A DNA stretch of 32,000 bases, taken from Telmatocola sphagniphila. GTDB lineage: Bacteria; Planctomycetota; Planctomycetia; Gemmatales; Gemmataceae. The stretch lies in contig NZ_CP074694.1 of assembly GCF_018398935.1 (NCBI RefSeq), positions 2,190,001 through 2,222,000 on the forward strand, given 5' to 3'. The notes under the pieces are model-generated. The model made no database searches and was not told the origin of the DNA. It saw only the letters and a program-made list of their open reading frames with translations. A program made the position numbers and the translations under genes. Numbering within the stretch: the stretch's first letter is position 1; each line of letters begins with the position of its first letter. Shown here piece after piece: positions 26,016-31,716 of the stretch.

Positions 26016-27902
26016 CTAAAAGTTAAATTTTTGAGATCCTAGCAGGCGAAGAAGAAGCGTCAATTTTTTCGTCACTGAGAAGGCAATGCCAACTCCCAGC
26101 ATTCCCAGGACGATCAGACAAGTGACTAATAATCGGAACGATAGCGTCATTTCTCCAGTAATAACAACTAGCAACACGGCCCCCACCAGGGGTATGACGG
26201 CAGCAAGACTTTGAAAAACCGCTAACCAACGACTCGCCCCCACCATTTCTGCCGCGAGGGTAGTCGGGGTTCGCGTATCGGCATTGGTAAGTCGCGGATA
26301 AAAAACTCTCAGGACGACAAATTGAATTCCAAAATGCGAATAGATTACGGCGATTAATCCCGACAGCGTGAAGGATACAAGAAAGTGAAAGTAGACCTCT
26401 CCAGAAACTCCACCTGCGATAACATCGATAAAAATTGGAAAGACAAGGCCACCAGGTAGCCAGCCAGCCAAGGCCAGAATGATCCCCCAAGTGCCCAATT
26501 TCAACACTCTAAAGCGCAATAGGTCGACCTCGGAACCGTCCATAATCGCCGATTCGGACAGACGGCGCCAACCGCGCACTATCGGACGGAGTAGCCGAAA
26601 CATAATGAATAAGCAAATGGGATAGACGAACAGATTATAGCCCAGAACGATCTTTTCAAAGGCTCGATGTTGAGGAGGATCCAATCGTACTTCGATGGTG
26701 TTGTAAGCAATATTAACAAATGACCCTATCATCTGCGGTAACAAGGTTAATAGGAAGAGAGCCAAAAACGGATTGCGTTCTACCCAGGCTGTCAGCAATC
26801 CTTCCGACGGAAGCCGTTCTTCAATAGCCAGCGCGTCGGATGCGTTCGCCAAGGCTCCAGCCAATTCACCCGCAGTTTGATAACGTTGAGTGGGTTCAGG
26901 ATCCAAGCAGCGTCGGAGTATACGTTCAACTACCGGAGGCAACTCCTGTACTACCCAACAACTGGAAACTGAAAATGACTTTTGATTTTGGAGGAGCTGG
27001 AGTTTGTCTGTCCTCGGATCACCAGTAGCAGGTTTATCGAATGGCATCCGACCAGTTAATAACTCATATAAAACGACACCAAGCGAATAAAGATCACTTC
27101 GCTCATCGACCACTCCGAAACCCGGTTCTTTTAGATAGGCCCCCAGATGCTCCGGCGCCATATAGCCAATAGTGCCTCCGAGGTGGTTTCGGGCTCGAAC
27201 ATCTTGGGTATCGATGGCGATATTGAAATCGGCCAAGAGTGGCCTGCCGTACGGATTGATTAAGATGTTAGCCGGTTTGATATCGCAGTGAAGAACACCG
27301 CGACGATGCGCGAATTCCAGTGCTTCTGCCATTTGCACGCTGATCCGGCATATTGCCGCGGCAAAACGATAAGTGGCCAGAATCTCACGATTTCGAATCC
27401 CAGCCAGATCAAAGGGAATTTCCTCATTCGAATCAATTGTTATCGATTCTAAAATCTCAATTCCTTGAACTGGACGTCGATTATTCTTGTGAAGGTGCTC
27501 GATCACATGAGCCAGAGTGACTCCAGGAACATACTGCAAGCAGAGACAATGCTTCCCGGATTCAACATTGATGAATTGTCCGTAAACCTGAACGATGTTT
27601 TGGTGTTCTAATTCTGCTAAGGCCTGGCCTTCGCCGAGTCCTAGAGTTTCGGAGACTTTCAAGGCCACCCTTCGATCCAGCGTAACGTCGTGAGCGAGAT
27701 AGACCGTTGCAAATCCCCCCCTGCCGAGTTCTCGAAGGATTACGAAATCGTTGAATCGTTCTCCGGGTCGAAAGCGCTGACTGGAGCAGGAAATCGATAC
27801 TTGCTCAACCTTTGTGGGTGCATTCAGAGTGCTCGCTGCTAAGTCGCTCCTCGAGATGGCGAAGATATCGGACTGTTCCTTTTTTTTCTGAGCTTCGGAC
27901 AT
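26016..27902 (-). CDS. Ser/Thr protein kinase with a polytopic (about 6 TM) C-terminal membrane domain
   Basis: Hanks kinase motifs are present: LGRGGFATVYLA, RRVALKV, HRRGVLHCDIKPANILI, ADFNIA, GTIGYMAPEH. The C-terminal 260 aa contain about six hydrophobic helices. Confidence 0.92.
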   Translation of the reverse strand: MSEAQKKKEQSDIFAISRSDLAASTLNAPTKVEQVSISCSSQRFRPGERFNDFVILRELGRGGFATVYLAHDVTLDRRVALKVSETLGLGEGQALAELEHQNIVQVYGQFINVESGKHCLCLQYVPGVTLAHVIEHLHKNNRRPVQGIEILESITIDSNEEIPFDLAGIRNREILATYRFAAAICRISVQMAEALEFAHRRGVLHCDIKPANILINPYGRPLLADFNIAIDTQDVRARNHLGGTIGYMAPEHLGAYLKEPGFGVVDERSDLYSLGVVLYELLTGRMPFDKPATGDPRTDKLQLLQNQKSFSVSSCWVVQELPPVVERILRRCLDPEPTQRYQTAGELAGALANASDALAIEERLPSEGLLTAWVERNPFLALFLLTLLPQMIGSFVNIAYNTIEVRLDPPQHRAFEKIVLGYNLFVYPICLFIMFRLLRPIVRGWRRLSESAIMDGSEVDLLRFRVLKLGTWGIILALAGWLPGGLVFPIFIDVIAGGVSGEVYFHFLVSFTLSGLIAVIYSHFGIQFVVLRVFYPRLTNADTRTPTTLAAEMVGASRWLAVFQSLAAVIPLVGAVLLVVITGEMTLSFRLLVTCLIVLGMLGVGIAFSVTKKLTLLLRLLGSQKFNF

Positions 27903-27939: not shown

Positions 27940-28704
27940 TCATCGAGCAAAATCATCCTTCTTTAATGCATTTTTTTCGAGGGTGGGTCGGCAATATTCG
28001 TACAGGCGAAGATCAATTAATTCTTGTGCGAGTTCTTCCTGTGTCGGCTGAAGAAGCGACGTTGACAAATCTTCGAGCAACAGATCCGCGAATTTTTCTC
28101 TCGCCCGCTGGAGTGCTTTCCGGACCGCAGGCGCATTGAGGGGCTTATTGAGCCTTTGGCTCATCATCTCGGCCATTTGTTCGCTCGACTGATCCGGATG
28201 GTCTGCCTTGTATTTCAAAATCGCATGATAAGGCTGGCCGCTACTTTCTTCCACGGCCAAGAGAGCTTGCCAGGCGCGACTCAGAAATTCGTCTCGCCAG
28301 CAAGTGATTAACGTTTCCTCGTCGATTCCTTGCGCGGCTTCGCTCTCGGCCGGTTCGGGAAACTCACTTGGCAAGTGGCCAGGTCGCTTCTTCCCTTTGC
28401 GGTAGTGGTTCGCAATCAGATTCTGGAGTATTCCTTTGACAAAGTCTCGGAAGCGTCCCCGATTTGGGTCAGCTCCTTTAAACGCCCCTTTAAGAAATGC
28501 GACTGCAAATTCCTGAGCCAATTCCTGAGCGAGATCCTCATTGCGAACAGCCCCCAGTAAGTAACGTTCCACAGCGCCCCCGTAAAGTTCCAGAAGCTGC
28601 CAAAGGGCCGTACGGCCCTCGGGCAAGTCGGCATCGTTGTTGGCGGCTCGGATCTGCTGCCAACTCGTGTTAATGGCGCTGAGTCGATTATTCGGTATGG
28701 GCAT
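27940..28704 (-). CDS. ECF-like sigma-70 family factor (kinase-associated type)
   Basis: Region-2-like segment: EFAVAFLKGAFKGADPNRGRFRDFVKGILQNLIANHYRK. Region-4-like HTH: SSEQMAEMMSQRLNKPLNAPAVRKALQRAREKFADLL. The gene ends 37 nt upstream of the kinase gene on the same strand. Confidence 0.78.
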   Translation of the reverse strand: MPIPNNRLSAINTSWQQIRAANNDADLPEGRTALWQLLELYGGAVERYLLGAVRNEDLAQELAQEFAVAFLKGAFKGADPNRGRFRDFVKGILQNLIANHYRKGKKRPGHLPSEFPEPAESEAAQGIDEETLITCWRDEFLSRAWQALLAVEESSGQPYHAILKYKADHPDQSSEQMAEMMSQRLNKPLNAPAVRKALQRAREKFADLLLEDLSTSLLQPTQEELAQELIDLRLYEYCRPTLEKNALKKDDFAR

Positions 28705-28905
28705 CGAGAATCTCCCGATTCAATTCGTGCGGGCAAGTCAAGTTAAGAATGATCTTATCAAGTTCCCTAAGAACATTTGGATCTCCTGAAAAGGAATTTG
28801 TTCGCGGTCTAAACAACTGCTTGAGATCAAGTGCTTCGAATACAAAAACCAAAAGCCACAGGCTTGGGTTGCCTATGGCCTTTATTGGAAGTGAACTTGA
28901 GAAGT

Positions 28906-29379
28906 TCATTCTTTATCGGAGCTGGCAGACTGCTTACTGCTAGCTTTCACTTCGGGAGCCGAGGGAAGGATAGCCGTTCCTGTTGCAGGACCGGAGATGG
29001 CCCCAGGGGGCAGAGTCAATCCTGTGCTGTTTCCGGGGAGGATTGCGGTATTCAGCGTACTCACCGGTGGATAGGTGGCAATCAAACTGACGGGTAGGTA
29101 CTGGTTGAAGGGGGCATACCAGTAGTACCATTGCGTCTGGATCGGAGAGTAGTAGCCGTAGCAACGATAGACAGGGAAGTAGCATCGGCTCGTCCAATTC
29201 CGGAAAGCCCTGGAAATCCCCACTATGCCCTTCTCGTGTTTTTGGTTGTGAATCTGATTCACGGAGACCGGTCGACCATTGTGCGGATCGCCGGCTTGGG
29301 TATTAGCGTTAGTTCCCAGGAGGAAACACAAGGCCGGGGCAACAATCATCGAGCGAAGAAGGGGAATGCGATTAAACAT
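28906..29379 (-). CDS. secreted aromatic-rich hypothetical protein (leader-associated gene 1)
   Basis: The start is set at the ATG conserved in both paralogous leaders (MFNRIPLLRSMIVAPALCFLLGTNANTQA). The Y/W-rich core is CYFPVYRCYGYYSPIQTQWYYWYAPF. The track's long N-terminal extension to 29589 is rejected (see findings). Confidence 0.7.
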   Translation of the reverse strand: MFNRIPLLRSMIVAPALCFLLGTNANTQAGDPHNGRPVSVNQIHNQKHEKGIVGISRAFRNWTSRCYFPVYRCYGYYSPIQTQWYYWYAPFNQYLPVSLIATYPPVSTLNTAILPGNSTGLTLPPGAISGPATGTAILPSAPEVKASSKQSASSDKE

Positions 29380-29580
29380 GGTCATTTTCCTTAGCGGCAG
29401 GAGGTGAAGCGGAGCCATTGCAGCCTGCCGGACTGAGAGCGGCTCCGCGTTTATCTTGGAGAAGACTTTGGCTTCCGAATCCCTGTGACTGGTTGCCTCT
29501 TTGTCCTCCACGCTTTCTTCTTTGCGCGAGTTTTCGAGTTGTGACGGAAGAACTGAAAAAAGTTGGAAATGATCCAAAGC
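29380..29580 (-). promoter_or_regulatory. conserved roughly 200-nt leader, copy 1 (candidate structured 5' UTR with or without promoter)
   Basis: About 85% identical by eye to 30436-30630. The indel pattern is not frame-preserving. A helix (29441-29448 pairing with 29409-29416) and a pseudoknot pairing (29424-29430 with 29395-29401) are preserved. Confidence 0.5.
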
Positions 29581-29781
29581 CAGTATCACTCACACGGCTC
29601 AGTAGCAGGGATTCAAGGCGAGAACAAAAGGACGTTCGCCCGGAAGCCAGTCTTATCGGTAGGTCCGTGGCTTCCCGAAATCAGCAAATTGAATCGAGTA
29701 GCTTCGTTACAAGAGGGTCGGCGCGCACGAAAAAGACCGCATTTGCGGTCCATTTTCGAGATGGCAATGTTGAGTTTTCTC

Positions 29782-30435
29782 TTATTTCTGTTTGACCGAC
29801 CACGTCACCTTATAGATGGAGTTCCGGCCGCAGCCGGTCGGCGAATCCAGGCCCTGATATTCACGCGTTTCTTTGTGGCTTGCACCGTAGCTTGCCACCT
29901 TCTGACCGGTGAGAGTGATATGATCTCCGGCTACCCAACCATCGCAATTAGGAAAGAGAAATTCGATCCCGATATTACCGATGTAAGATATGACCTCCCC
30001 CCAGGCACCTGCCGCAGTGGCTCCCTTCTTCAAGAGTTCGGTCGCCCCTTTTTCCAGCCATTTGGAAACCTCATCCTGCTTGTGCCCCGAATTCAGGACC
30101 AGATAGGTCAGCACAATTTTCGTGTCCGGCTTCGGCACGGTCACCCCACTGAAGGAAAGACCGACCTTGAAGGTACCGTCGTTAAGATCTCCCATGTGTT
30201 TGACCTTGGCCGGATAGATTTTATCTCCCACTTTTAACGCGAAGGACACATGATCGGTATCGTTGTGGCGTGATCGGGTGCGCAGAATCTCAAAGTTCTC
30301 CAGCGTGAAGTCGTAGGTTTTCGCTGCTGGCGGTTTTTCCTTGGGAGGATCGGCTTGAGCGTTCATACCTCCAAAGGCAATACTCACTACCATTGCGGCG
30401 ATAAAATTTCTGAAATTCAGTATGCGATTAAACAT
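29782..30435 (-). CDS. secreted hypothetical protein (leader-associated gene 2)
   Basis: MFNRILNFRNFIAAMVVSIAFGGMNAQA signal peptide, then a globular beta-rich sequence. The conserved ATG is at 30435. The TTG at 30441 used by the track is an ATG in copy 1 only. Confidence 0.8.
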   Translation of the reverse strand: MFNRILNFRNFIAAMVVSIAFGGMNAQADPPKEKPPAAKTYDFTLENFEILRTRSRHNDTDHVSFALKVGDKIYPAKVKHMGDLNDGTFKVGLSFSGVTVPKPDTKIVLTYLVLNSGHKQDEVSKWLEKGATELLKKGATAAGAWGEVISYIGNIGIEFLFPNCDGWVAGDHITLTGQKVASYGASHKETREYQGLDSPTGCGRNSIYKVTWSVKQK

Positions 30436-30630
30436 GGTCAATTTCCTATCGGCAGGAGGTGAAACGGAGCCTTTGCAGCCTGCCGAACTGATGGCGGCTC
30501 CGCGTTTTCTTGGAGAAGACTTGGGCTTCCAAATCCCTGTGACTGGTGACCTCTTTGTTCTCCACGCACTCTTCTTTGCTCGAGAAATCCGGTTGTGACC
30601 GAAGAAACGAAAAAATTGTTTGGAGCCGGT
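30436..30630 (-). promoter_or_regulatory. conserved roughly 200-nt leader, copy 2
   Basis: Paralogue of 29380-29580. The helix is 30496-30503 with 30464-30471 (one G-C pair replaced by G-U). The pseudoknot pairing is 30479-30485 with 30450-30456. Confidence 0.5.
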
Positions 30631-30816
30631 CGAGGAGAACGCAACAAAAATTGACTGAAAGTGGCCGAGACAGTTTTCTGAATCAAATTGAGCCAGGTGC
30701 AGTCACAAATTCCCAGCAAGAAGAATAAGCAGGTGTGGCGAACAGCTTCCGATCAATGGGATTCGAAGGGCATTGTTTACCACGGAACAATCTTTCGGCT
30801 TAAAAAGGGGACATCC

Positions 30817-31716
30817 ATGCTCTTTTCAACGCAATCGGCAAAGCGATTTCTTTTTCTCTCTACATTTTTAAATTTCCTAAGTGTCGCATCGCTCCCAGCC
30901 GATGAGCCACGGAACCCTGTGGCTCCAAATGCCAAAACTTACGCTGAAAGCGTTCTCACTTCCCAACCCGTCGGCTACTGGCGACTCAACGAAACACACG
31001 GGTCAATCGCTGGCGACGCAACGAAAAATAAAATTGATGGTCGCTATTTCGATGGAGTCTCCCTGGGCAGATTGGGAGCATTCGCACAGGGAGGTGATAA
31101 AGCCGTAGGCTTCGACGGCAAAACAGGGTACATCGAAATCCCTTCGAACAAAGCCTTCAGTCAACCGACCAGCGGCAAAGGATTTTCCGTTAAGGTCTGG
31201 TTCAAGCCGACTCGACTCGAATTCCCCGGCGAAACCGACGATCCTTATGTTTACTGGATCGGCAAAGGCCAACCGAGCCAATACGAATGGGCCTTGCGCT
31301 TCTATAGTCGCAATTCAAGCCGGCCGAATCGGATCTCCGCTTATGTTTTCAACAAGGAGGGGAAAAAAGGAGCCGGCGCCGAGTTCGAAGATCCCGTTAA
31401 GTTGAATGAATGGATTCATGTGGTCGCCTGCTTTGATCCTGGCAGCAAAGCCAACCCGAAGGCCGGCGTATCAATTTACAAGAATGGCGAGCTTCGAGGC
31501 AGCCCGGCCAGCCAACGGGGGGCACGGTATGCTTCGTTTGACATCACTCCAAGAGCTGGGTCAGCGCCGATTCGACTGGGAACCCGCAATTTCACGAGTT
31601 TTTTCCTGGGCGAATTGGACGAGTTGGCCATTTACCCTAGAGTTTTGACAGACAAGGAAATTCTCGAACATTTCCGAGCGGCCGACGCACTGAAGCCGAA
31701 CCTTTCGAAGAAATGA
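30817..31716 (+). CDS. LamG-like (concanavalin A-like lectin/glucanase) domain secreted protein
   Basis: ATG 30817 is preceded by AAGGGG. Signal peptide: MLFSTQSAKRFLFLSTFLNFLSVASLPA. Typical Laminin_G_3 features are YWRLNE, AVGFDGKTGYIEIP, FSVKVWFKP, WIHVVACFD and DELAIYPRVLTDKEILEHF. Confidence 0.88.
   Translation: MLFSTQSAKRFLFLSTFLNFLSVASLPADEPRNPVAPNAKTYAESVLTSQPVGYWRLNETHGSIAGDATKNKIDGRYFDGVSLGRLGAFAQGGDKAVGFDGKTGYIEIPSNKAFSQPTSGKGFSVKVWFKPTRLEFPGETDDPYVYWIGKGQPSQYEWALRFYSRNSSRPNRISAYVFNKEGKKGAGAEFEDPVKLNEWIHVVACFDPGSKANPKAGVSIYKNGELRGSPASQRGARYASFDITPRAGSAPIRLGTRNFTSFFLGELDELAIYPRVLTDKEILEHFRAADALKPNLSKK

Follow-up and report, generated by a model that had tools for sequence, protein, structure and literature searches.

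Positions 2,190,001 to 2,222,000 of the Telmatocola sphagniphila contig NZ_CP074694.1, a stretch of 32,000 nt that we call the window, contain a segment of about 200 nt that occurs twice, each time reaching from upstream of a gene for a secreted-type protein into its first codons. We call the two segments cassettes A and B after the genes that they precede. Read on the minus strand, the order of the locus is cassette B, gene B, a hairpin, cassette A, gene A, a second hairpin, a gene for a sigma factor and a gene for a Ser/Thr protein kinase; each of the two genes has its own cassette in front and a terminator-like hairpin behind it (Table 1). An original prediction, made from the letters of the window, had noted the repeat and proposed that it is a shared promoter with a structured 5' untranslated region (UTR) that co-regulates two exported proteins.

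Table 1 Features of the locus, with positions counted from the first letter of the window. SD, Shine-Dalgarno sequence; TSS, transcription start site; ECF, extracytoplasmic function.
Feature	Positions	Strand	Remarks
Cassette copy A	29366..29566	-	from the upstream end of the promoter-like motif through codon 5 of gene A
GTCACA of copy A	29540..29545	-	-35-like; invariant; match to model R1, 49.7 bits
AAGAAG of copy A	29517..29522	-	-10-like (consensus AAyAAG); 17 nt after GTCACA; predicted TSS ~29510-29508
Stem-loop domain of copy A	29458..29509	-	P1, GGAGGAC (29509-29503) with GUCUUCUCC (29466-29458)
Hairpin P2 of copy A, inside P1	29492-29475	-	CCAGUC-ACAGG-GAUUCGG
Putative interleaved helices of copy A	29395..29448	-	helix a, 29448-29441 with 29416-29409; helix b, 29430-29424 with 29401-29395
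SD and start codon of gene A	29377..29392	-	AAGGA 29392-29388 and ATG 29379-29377, read directly
Gene A	28906..29379	-	157 aa, secreted-type, Cys/Trp/Tyr-rich; in many genomes, family members lie beside sigma orthologues
Terminator-like hairpin after gene A	28850..28884	-	
Cassette copy B	30422..30622	-	equivalent tract ahead of gene B
GTCACA of copy B	30594..30599	-	-35-like
AAGAAG of copy B	30571..30576	-	-10-like; predicted TSS ~30564-30562
P1/P2 stem-loop domain of copy B	30512..30563	-	
Putative interleaved helices of copy B	30450..30503	-	helix a, 30503-30496 with 30471-30464; helix b, 30485-30479 with 30456-30450
Gene B	29782..30435	-	secreted 217-aa protein; beta-sandwich model, weak C2-like matches; homologues in the same cluster of relatives
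Terminator-like hairpin after gene B	29734..29751	-	
Divergent ECF-like sigma factor	27940..28704	-	254 aa
Ser/Thr protein kinase	26016..27902	-	628 aa; hydrophobic, apparently membrane-spanning C-terminal half; co-encoded with sigma
Third, diverged cassette	30698..30813	+	GTCACA 30702-30707; AATAAG 30724-30729; hairpin CGAUC-AAUGG-GAUUCG ~30750-30765; ATG 30814; predicted TSS ~30736-30738
LamG protein (Laminin_G_3), secreted	30814..31716	+	divergent, upstream of B; conserved cluster member in relatives

The repeated segment

The two copies are collinear, and blastn aligned them at 87% identity over 196 nt (E = 5.6e-62), which bears out the earlier estimate, made by eye, of about 85%. A repeat search of the window divided the similarity into three blocks, 29451-29561 with 30505-30615 (111 nt, 85% identity), 29387-29452 with 30442-30507 (66 nt, 88%) and 29366-29391 with 30422-30447 (26 nt, 96%). 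The homology begins at ..CCAAC/TTTTTTC (~29566 in copy A and ~30622 in copy B) and stops just past ATGTTTAATCGCAT, at codon 5, and the sequences flanking either end of the tract are unrelated between the copies. The original prediction had placed the end of sharing after the peptide MFNRI; past this point the products of genes A and B showed no likeness (BLASTP E = 9.1), and the local DNA alignment of the two genes did not score above codon shuffles (p = 0.54). Homology running on through the signal peptides of the two window proteins (..N(A/T)QA-(G)DP) was considered and dropped at the same p value of 0.54. Within the 6.59-Mb single-contig genome, blastn found no third strong copy and nothing else above chance.

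The copies differ by two true 1-nt insertions or deletions (indels), AGATAAAC / AGA-AAAC and CGCTAAGG / CGAT-AGG, and copy B is the shorter at both. The first of these had been recognised originally; the second had been sought in GCCAAAG versus GCCCAAG, which is a substitution. The two indels had also been thought to compensate each other, whereas they are additive: both shorten copy B, and the A-to-B start spacing goes from 1054 to 1055 to 1056 across the three blocks. Because both act in the same direction, the two copies share no reading frame. On the B side the upstream open reading frame (ORF; 30438-30719) stops, as had been noticed, at a TGA out of frame with gene B. The ~200-nt shared element is non-coding, and its conservation lies at the nucleotide level and not at the protein level, as originally proposed.

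A peptide encoded by the shared region, either as an N-terminal extension or as an upstream ORF, can be given almost no weight. The gene A frame does stay open up to a GTG at 29589, giving an ORF of 227 aa, but the indels put the two copies in different frames; in copy B the frame of the gene is without a start codon and the upstream ORF ends out of frame, and the upstream in-frame ATG of copy A reads AAG in copy B. A coding upstream ORF was rejected on the frame shift. In-frame ATGs of the open frame of gene A occur at 29385 and ~29418, and gene callers may be over-extending the start of this gene; the start has been corrected to the ATG at 29379-29377, which is backed by copy B and by the relatives.

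The promoter-like motif and the neighbouring sigma factor family

The 5' third of the repeat is a motif for which 45 non-redundant instances gave the consensus aaAAaa-N13-GTCACA-N17-AAcAAGAG-ggtG.agaGGAcaA, the -10-like block being also written AAyAAGAG. GTCACA was invariant in all 45, the spacings were constant within 1 nt, and the motif had no dyad symmetry; a CRP/FNR-like site, for which TCACA could be a half-site, was rejected because the dyad partner is missing. The 17-nt interval between the two blocks, together with an A-tract lying two helical turns upstream, is the arrangement of a -35/-10 promoter that carries an UP-like element, and it predicts a TSS ~7 nt past AAyAAG. The spacer between the two blocks is the most diverged stretch between copies A and B, differing at 6 of 17 positions, and both hexamers are identical, a pattern that fits what is expected of a promoter under selection.

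The same blocks could be read in another register, with GTCACAA as an RpoE-like -10 element, the A-tract as the -35 element and the AAGAG...GAGGAC part as a leader element starting ~25 nt into the RNA. The sigma-E -10 element is TGTCAAA, which TGTCACA resembles, and an A-rich block does lie upstream at a constant distance. GTC or CGT is usual in ECF -10 elements (PMC8103513). The A-tract, however, ends 12-14 nt before GTCACA, where ECF geometry would call for ~4 nt more, and cassettes A and B themselves lack it or carry a different sequence there. In addition, a second invariant block at exactly 17 nt is the classic -35/-10 spacing, and the conserved stem of the leader described below would not be 5'-terminal in the RpoE-like register. 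We consider this register less likely than the -35/-10 one and, taken by itself, unlikely.

A DNA-level search with the element in 201 genomes of the family (Gemmataceae) returned chance 20-mers only, and a profile was needed to find relatives; a search with protein A for related loci among the genome contigs found none. With R1, a sequence-only model of the motif core, we detected one to four copies in 44 of 252 family genomes, from 31 of 90 genera. The two cassettes score E ~1e-11 (nhmmer) in the window's genome, where the next match has E = 0.57. Thus the element, searched in its own and in related genomes, has two strong copies here and a core that is found in 31 genera; the case of two copies only and no covariation, named at the outset as one that would speak against a regulatory role, is not what was found, as the motif occurs in 44 genomes and the leader hairpin P2 covaries (next section). 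Most instances lie 105-130 nt upstream of protein-A-type genes and some ahead of other secreted proteins; in related uncultured Gemmataceae the motif precedes both A and B homologues as well as extra small genes.

These occurrences also bear on a rival view, in which the repeat arose by recent, neutral segmental duplication or as a small mobile element and has no regulatory role. The presence of only two strong copies with sharp boundaries would suit such an origin, which is nevertheless very improbable and already contradicted by cassettes ahead of orthologous genes in other organisms and in 31 genera; furthermore, the differences between A and B avoid the motif blocks. As for a mobile element, two strong copies and one weak copy all stand at a single locus, and terminal inverted repeats and target duplications were not seen. 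A miniature inverted-repeat transposable element was rejected on the few copies at one locus and the missing terminal inverted repeats.

Homologues of protein A often stand directly beside orthologues of the sigma factor (42-57% identity) and of the kinase (39-50%). The sigma family, delimited at E <= 1e-30, was present in 106 of the 252 genomes: 37 of the 44 with the motif and 69 of the 208 without it (odds ratio 10.6, Fisher p = 4e-10). The motif stood 31-3558 bp from the sigma gene in 21 genomes; in 14 of these the distance was <200 bp, and the two then usually lay on divergent strands. These figures make a strong, though circumstantial, case for the motif being the target promoter of the adjacent sigma family.

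Several observations weigh against this assignment. The window's sigma gene has no motif upstream, so that there is no obvious autoregulation, and the link between sigma factor and motif consists of synteny and co-occurrence. The motif is missing from 69 sigma-positive genomes and from the 8 kb around three close orthologues of the sigma gene. The motif is also unlike the canonical ECF promoter, and the -35/-10 assignment comes from geometry alone. Canonical ECF promoters have AAC at -35 and CGT at -10 (PMC8103513); ours resembles them in having two short conserved blocks at a fixed spacing of 16-17 nt, high specificity, few sites per genome and an adjacent sigma gene, and differs in that the blocks are GTCACA and AAyAAGAG and the sigma gene itself is not preceded by the motif.

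The sigma family was seen to expand up to six paralogues per genome (G082), yet GTCACA is missing from many sigma-positive genomes; it is probable that the paralogues recognise motifs that have diverged. In one locus (L049, G143:C17) two tandem near-identical protein-A genes (~6760 and ~12310) carry GCGAAA..GTGTCCTCCC upstream in place of GTCACA, possibly as a variant promoter read by a paralogous sigma factor. In another genome (L108, G048:C25:29000-43000, and L115) we found at least four near-identical copies of the cassette plus gene, three of them in tandem, and the coding regions of some copies were frameshifted or truncated, pointing to amplification and decay of regulon members elsewhere too.

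The sigma factor matched Pfam Sigma70_r2 at 26.1 bits (cutoff 24) and aligned to 2-161 of the 165 positions of TIGR02937 at 33.1 bits, below the cutoff of 42.9; its orthologues are labelled ECF subfamily by the source annotation. Sigma and kinase orthologues are adjacent in loci L050-L053, L055, L056, L061, L098, L099, L106, L117, L119, L244 and L245. The C-terminal 260 aa of the window's kinase are strongly hydrophobic and resemble several membrane helices, and no sensor domain was recognisable in it. ECF sigma factors controlled by Ser/Thr kinases include EcfP-PknT of Vibrio parahaemolyticus (ECF43), EcfK-PknS of Xanthomonas citri and the planctomycete groups ECF59-62 (PMC8103513, PMC7826278); in place of the acidic DAED motif, the sigma2 region of ECF43/59/60 has uncharged Ser/Thr residues (STTA in EcfP), and these become phosphorylated (PMC8103513). 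The pair in the window is like these systems in that an apparently sigma2+sigma4-type sigma factor lies beside a Ser/Thr kinase gene, the proposed regulon is small and local, and an adjacent anti-sigma gene is not recognisable. It is unlike them in that the sigma factor has no Ser/Thr at the DAED site, its TIGR02937 match is below threshold, and its putative target motif is not AAC / CGT. The DAED position, placed by eye from the xxxxLxQEF context, reads [A/L]-A-x-[E/D] in 16 orthologues and LAQE in the window. Since the kinase linkage is kept but the switch signature is missing and the promoter is not AAC / CGT, we did not file the pair under ECF43/59/60; by analogy, it may work like a kinase-linked ECF system.

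If the sigma factor were not the direct reader, the blocks would be the operator of a transcription factor, possibly a kinase substrate, at a housekeeping promoter. Such an arrangement would accommodate a sigma link that consists of synteny and co-occurrence only, a motif that is not a canonical ECF promoter and a sigma factor without EcfP-type phospho-switch residues. We regard it as distinctly unlikely, given that the motif has no dyad symmetry, that no transcription-factor gene is conserved in the cluster, that a promoter would account for two invariant blocks spaced at 17 nt with a stem-loop after them, and that co-occurrence with the sigma family is strong.

The third-best R1 match in the window (12.2 bits, E = 0.0033; by itself not significant genome-wide, E = 4.4) lies on the opposite strand, 112 nt upstream of the LamG start, and consists of GTCACA, 16 nt, AATAAG, GGUGUGGCGAAC and a P2-like hairpin. 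Its GTCACA box and that of cassette B stand back to back, ~100 nt apart. The mini-regulon here appears to consist of three separately promoted genes, A, B and LamG; in the relatives LamG closely follows the A-type gene and has no motif of its own.

Regarding the products, the N-termini of proteins A and B are signal-peptide-like and end in AQA/TQA, as judged by reading the sequence. Protein A had no match in Pfam or NCBIfam. Its relatives are small secreted proteins that combine a low-complexity linker with a conserved Cys/Trp/Tyr-rich core, ..HW..C..C.CY.CP...CWYYWY.P..CYLPV.., and this family, which has no name, was found in 34 of 201 Gemmataceae genomes. Protein B had no Pfam match. Its AlphaFold model (pLDDT 79, pTM 0.74) is a beta-sandwich with an inserted helical hairpin, and its best matches in the PDB were C2 domains (E = 6e-5, target-normalised TM 0.55-0.59, 8-12% identity), from which we tentatively call the modelled fold C2-like. 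One homologue of protein B (P0013) also contains, as a fusion, a beta-propeller lectin-like domain, and the motif is missing upstream of its gene.

Structure in the leader RNA

When the leaders were folded independently, most of them used GAGGAC as the 5' arm of a long helix (P1) enclosing a second hairpin (P2, e.g., CGAGUC-AAAGG-GACUCG), which was followed by an A/C-rich linker and then by a hairpin right before the SD. P1 was tested in an alignment-free way because its varying arm lengths prevent a column-wise count. The 5' block paired more strongly with the downstream region of its own leader than with those of other leaders (-8.9 vs -7.1 kcal/mol; Wilcoxon p = 0.0025; permutation p = 2e-4), and the 5' domain surpassed its dinucleotide shuffles in stability (mean z = -1.73, p = 1e-6), with z below -1.64 in 16 of 32 leaders. 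For P2, in a MAFFT alignment that was not fitted to the structure, 88.9% was paired in register as against 12-49% when slid; three pairs were changed on both sides, and the covariation was 0.366 vs 0.258, with none of 500 shuffles reaching the observed value. RNAalifold on the MAFFT whole-leader alignment recovered P2 alone.

The segment before the SD was mildly stable (z = -0.61, p = 0.012). The whole-element minimum free energies of the two copies were not significant (z = -0.2 and -1.06), significance being found in sub-domains only, and Rfam 15 gave chance-level matches to unrelated families (E >= 0.1). A G-to-A change in copy B weakens P1 and counts against the 5' stem-loop; its reality is nonetheless supported by the comparative tests. 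The stem-loop begins 1-3 nt from the predicted TSS, which fits the -35/-10 register and suggests a role in mRNA stability. The ompA 5' UTR is the example of a stabilising stem-loop at the 5' terminus of a bacterial mRNA. Similar to such stem-loops, a stable hairpin lies here within a few nt of the predicted transcript 5' end; unlike them, the 5' arm GAGGAC is conserved across genera and encloses a second conserved hairpin.

Closer to the start codon, the window and its closer relatives share two putative interleaved helices at fixed spacings, helix a (GAGCC...GGCUC) and helix b (CGGCAGG...CCUGCCG), the latter ending 3-5 nt ahead of the SD. Among 13 leaders, 84.5% of cells were paired in register as against 24-47% when slid. 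Compensatory changes were few (GAGUC/GACUC, GGCAGA/UCUGCC, and an outer pair going from G-C to A-U to U-A). Five further sigma-orthologue loci gave one extra leader of this type; in the 14th leader (L245) helix a is kept through a compensatory change. A metagenome pattern scan for the pseudoknot, made without its first arm, produced 119 chance matches, none of them genuine.

The case for these helices has its own weak points. Their support is mostly invariance, and 22-33 of 500 shuffles (~5%) reach the observed values; helix b of L245 carries an internal A.G mismatch; and of the five A/B differences in the region, four are in loops and one turns a G-C pair into G.U (p = 0.11). The pseudoknot type is confined to one clade, more distant relatives having a simple hairpin before the SD. 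We consider an SD-proximal pseudoknot plausible but unproven. Riboswitches with an SD-proximal H-type pseudoknot are known in the preQ1-II, SAM-II and fluoride classes. The leader is like these in that two putative interleaved helices lie just upstream of the ribosome-binding site, and unlike them in that it has no Rfam match, an 8-nt segment between the stems, weak covariation and an unpaired SD.

On another reading, the leader would act mainly as a riboregulator that senses a ligand or a protein through a riboswitch-like pseudoknot next to the SD; its sequence would then be conserved for this RNA function, and the promoter would be incidental. The position of the interleaved helices, their in-register pairing and the few compensatory changes would speak for it. 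Weak covariation, the mismatch in L245, the restriction to one clade and the lack of an Rfam match speak against it, and across the family conservation is highest in the DNA motif upstream of the predicted TSS; a leader of this kind seems quite unlikely.

Ancestry of the cassettes and the proposed regulon

Homologues of protein B with 54-64% identity were found on metagenome contigs, where the neighbourhood contains the sigma factor (up to 82% identical), the kinase, B, an A-type gene and LamG. The extra small genes of these relatives encode secreted proteins of 125-139 aa (L119 1454-2985 and L245 10758-10822; duplicated in L119), and their leader is of a shorter type, sharing the promoter core and placing a GAUGC..GCAUC hairpin ahead of the SD.

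We compared the leaders of the two window copies (W_A and W_B) with those of L117, L119, L120 and L240. Identity was 73% between A orthologues, 62-71% between B orthologues and 50-62% (~57%) between A and B within one genome, whereas W_A and W_B were 82% identical. In a maximum-likelihood tree W_A and W_B were sisters with 100/100 support, on a stem of 0.63 with tips of 0.10 and 0.14; L119_A grouped with L120_A (95/93) and L119_B with L240_B (82/77). The leaders of the relatives thus group by gene and those of the window together, suggesting lineage-specific homogenisation of old paralogous cassettes. From these comparisons, the 82-87% identity between A and B is not due purely to purifying selection, and gene conversion or an equivalent replacement is its most likely cause.

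The edges of the converted tract fall where the old paralogues cease being similar, and the sharp boundaries of the repeat would follow from conversion where similarity persisted. The signal peptides of A and B are visibly alike in the relatives (e.g., MLTNILNTRSMILAVALSG vs MLANILNIRSFVLTATMSL in L120), implying that the ancestral shared unit spanned from the promoter into the signal peptide. The affinities within the tract are mixed, looking B-type just upstream of GTCACA and A-type or L241/L242-like in the long P1/P2, and they single out no donor. The pattern is like the concerted evolution of tufA/tufB, in which paralogues within a genome are closer than orthologues and the tract edges are sharp, and unlike it in that the tract here is a ~200-nt non-coding promoter-leader cassette of otherwise unrelated genes.

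Our favoured explanation, which we hold to be probable, is that A and B are old paralogous promoter-leader cassettes under the adjacent sigma factor, homogenised recently by gene conversion in this lineage. Each cassette would comprise a promoter, the complete 5' UTR, the start codon and four more codons, placing genes A and B, and LamG through the diverged third copy, under an alternative sigma factor encoded just downstream; the activity of this sigma factor is presumably set by the co-encoded membrane Ser/Thr kinase. Its holoenzyme with RNA polymerase may recognise A/T-tract-N13-GTCACA-N17-AAyAAG and start ~7 nt downstream. The transcript would open with the stable stem-loop whose 5' arm is GAGGAC, in part evidenced by the comparative tests, and the stem-loop might serve in stabilisation or in control of processing; the interleaved helices by the SD could conceivably modulate translation initiation. 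The cassette itself would be old, and the identity of A and B would come from non-reciprocal exchange over a ~200-nt tract of residual similarity between the paralogues. The co-regulation of two exported proteins by a shared promoter and structured 5' UTR, as first proposed, is supported by the sigma-linked motif and the covarying 5' stem-loop.

A more far-reaching and rather doubtful proposal is that the motif is an undescribed promoter class of a Gemmataceae-wide, kinase-linked ECF-like sigma family, fused to a new cis-regulatory RNA (GAGGAC stem-loop plus pseudoknot) that would add a post-transcriptional checkpoint sensing a ligand, a protein or temperature, the whole being a portable module for regulon recruitment that spreads to unrelated genes for secreted proteins and is held uniform through gene conversion.

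Planctomycetes have very many ECF-like sigma factors and Ser/Thr kinases, and to our knowledge almost none of these has a known target promoter or regulon. The locus supplies a promoter motif open to testing, of which a cultured strain has three sites and its relatives dozens, and a defined candidate mini-regulon of secreted proteins, the Cys/aromatic-rich A, the C2-like B and LamG. A sigma family without the published phospho-switch residues hints at a different mode of control by the kinase, and the conserved leader is a candidate for a new cis-regulatory RNA. The cassettes would also be a clean case of gene conversion acting on a non-coding regulatory cassette of unrelated genes, and such conversion may be one route by which regulons recruit and retain their members.

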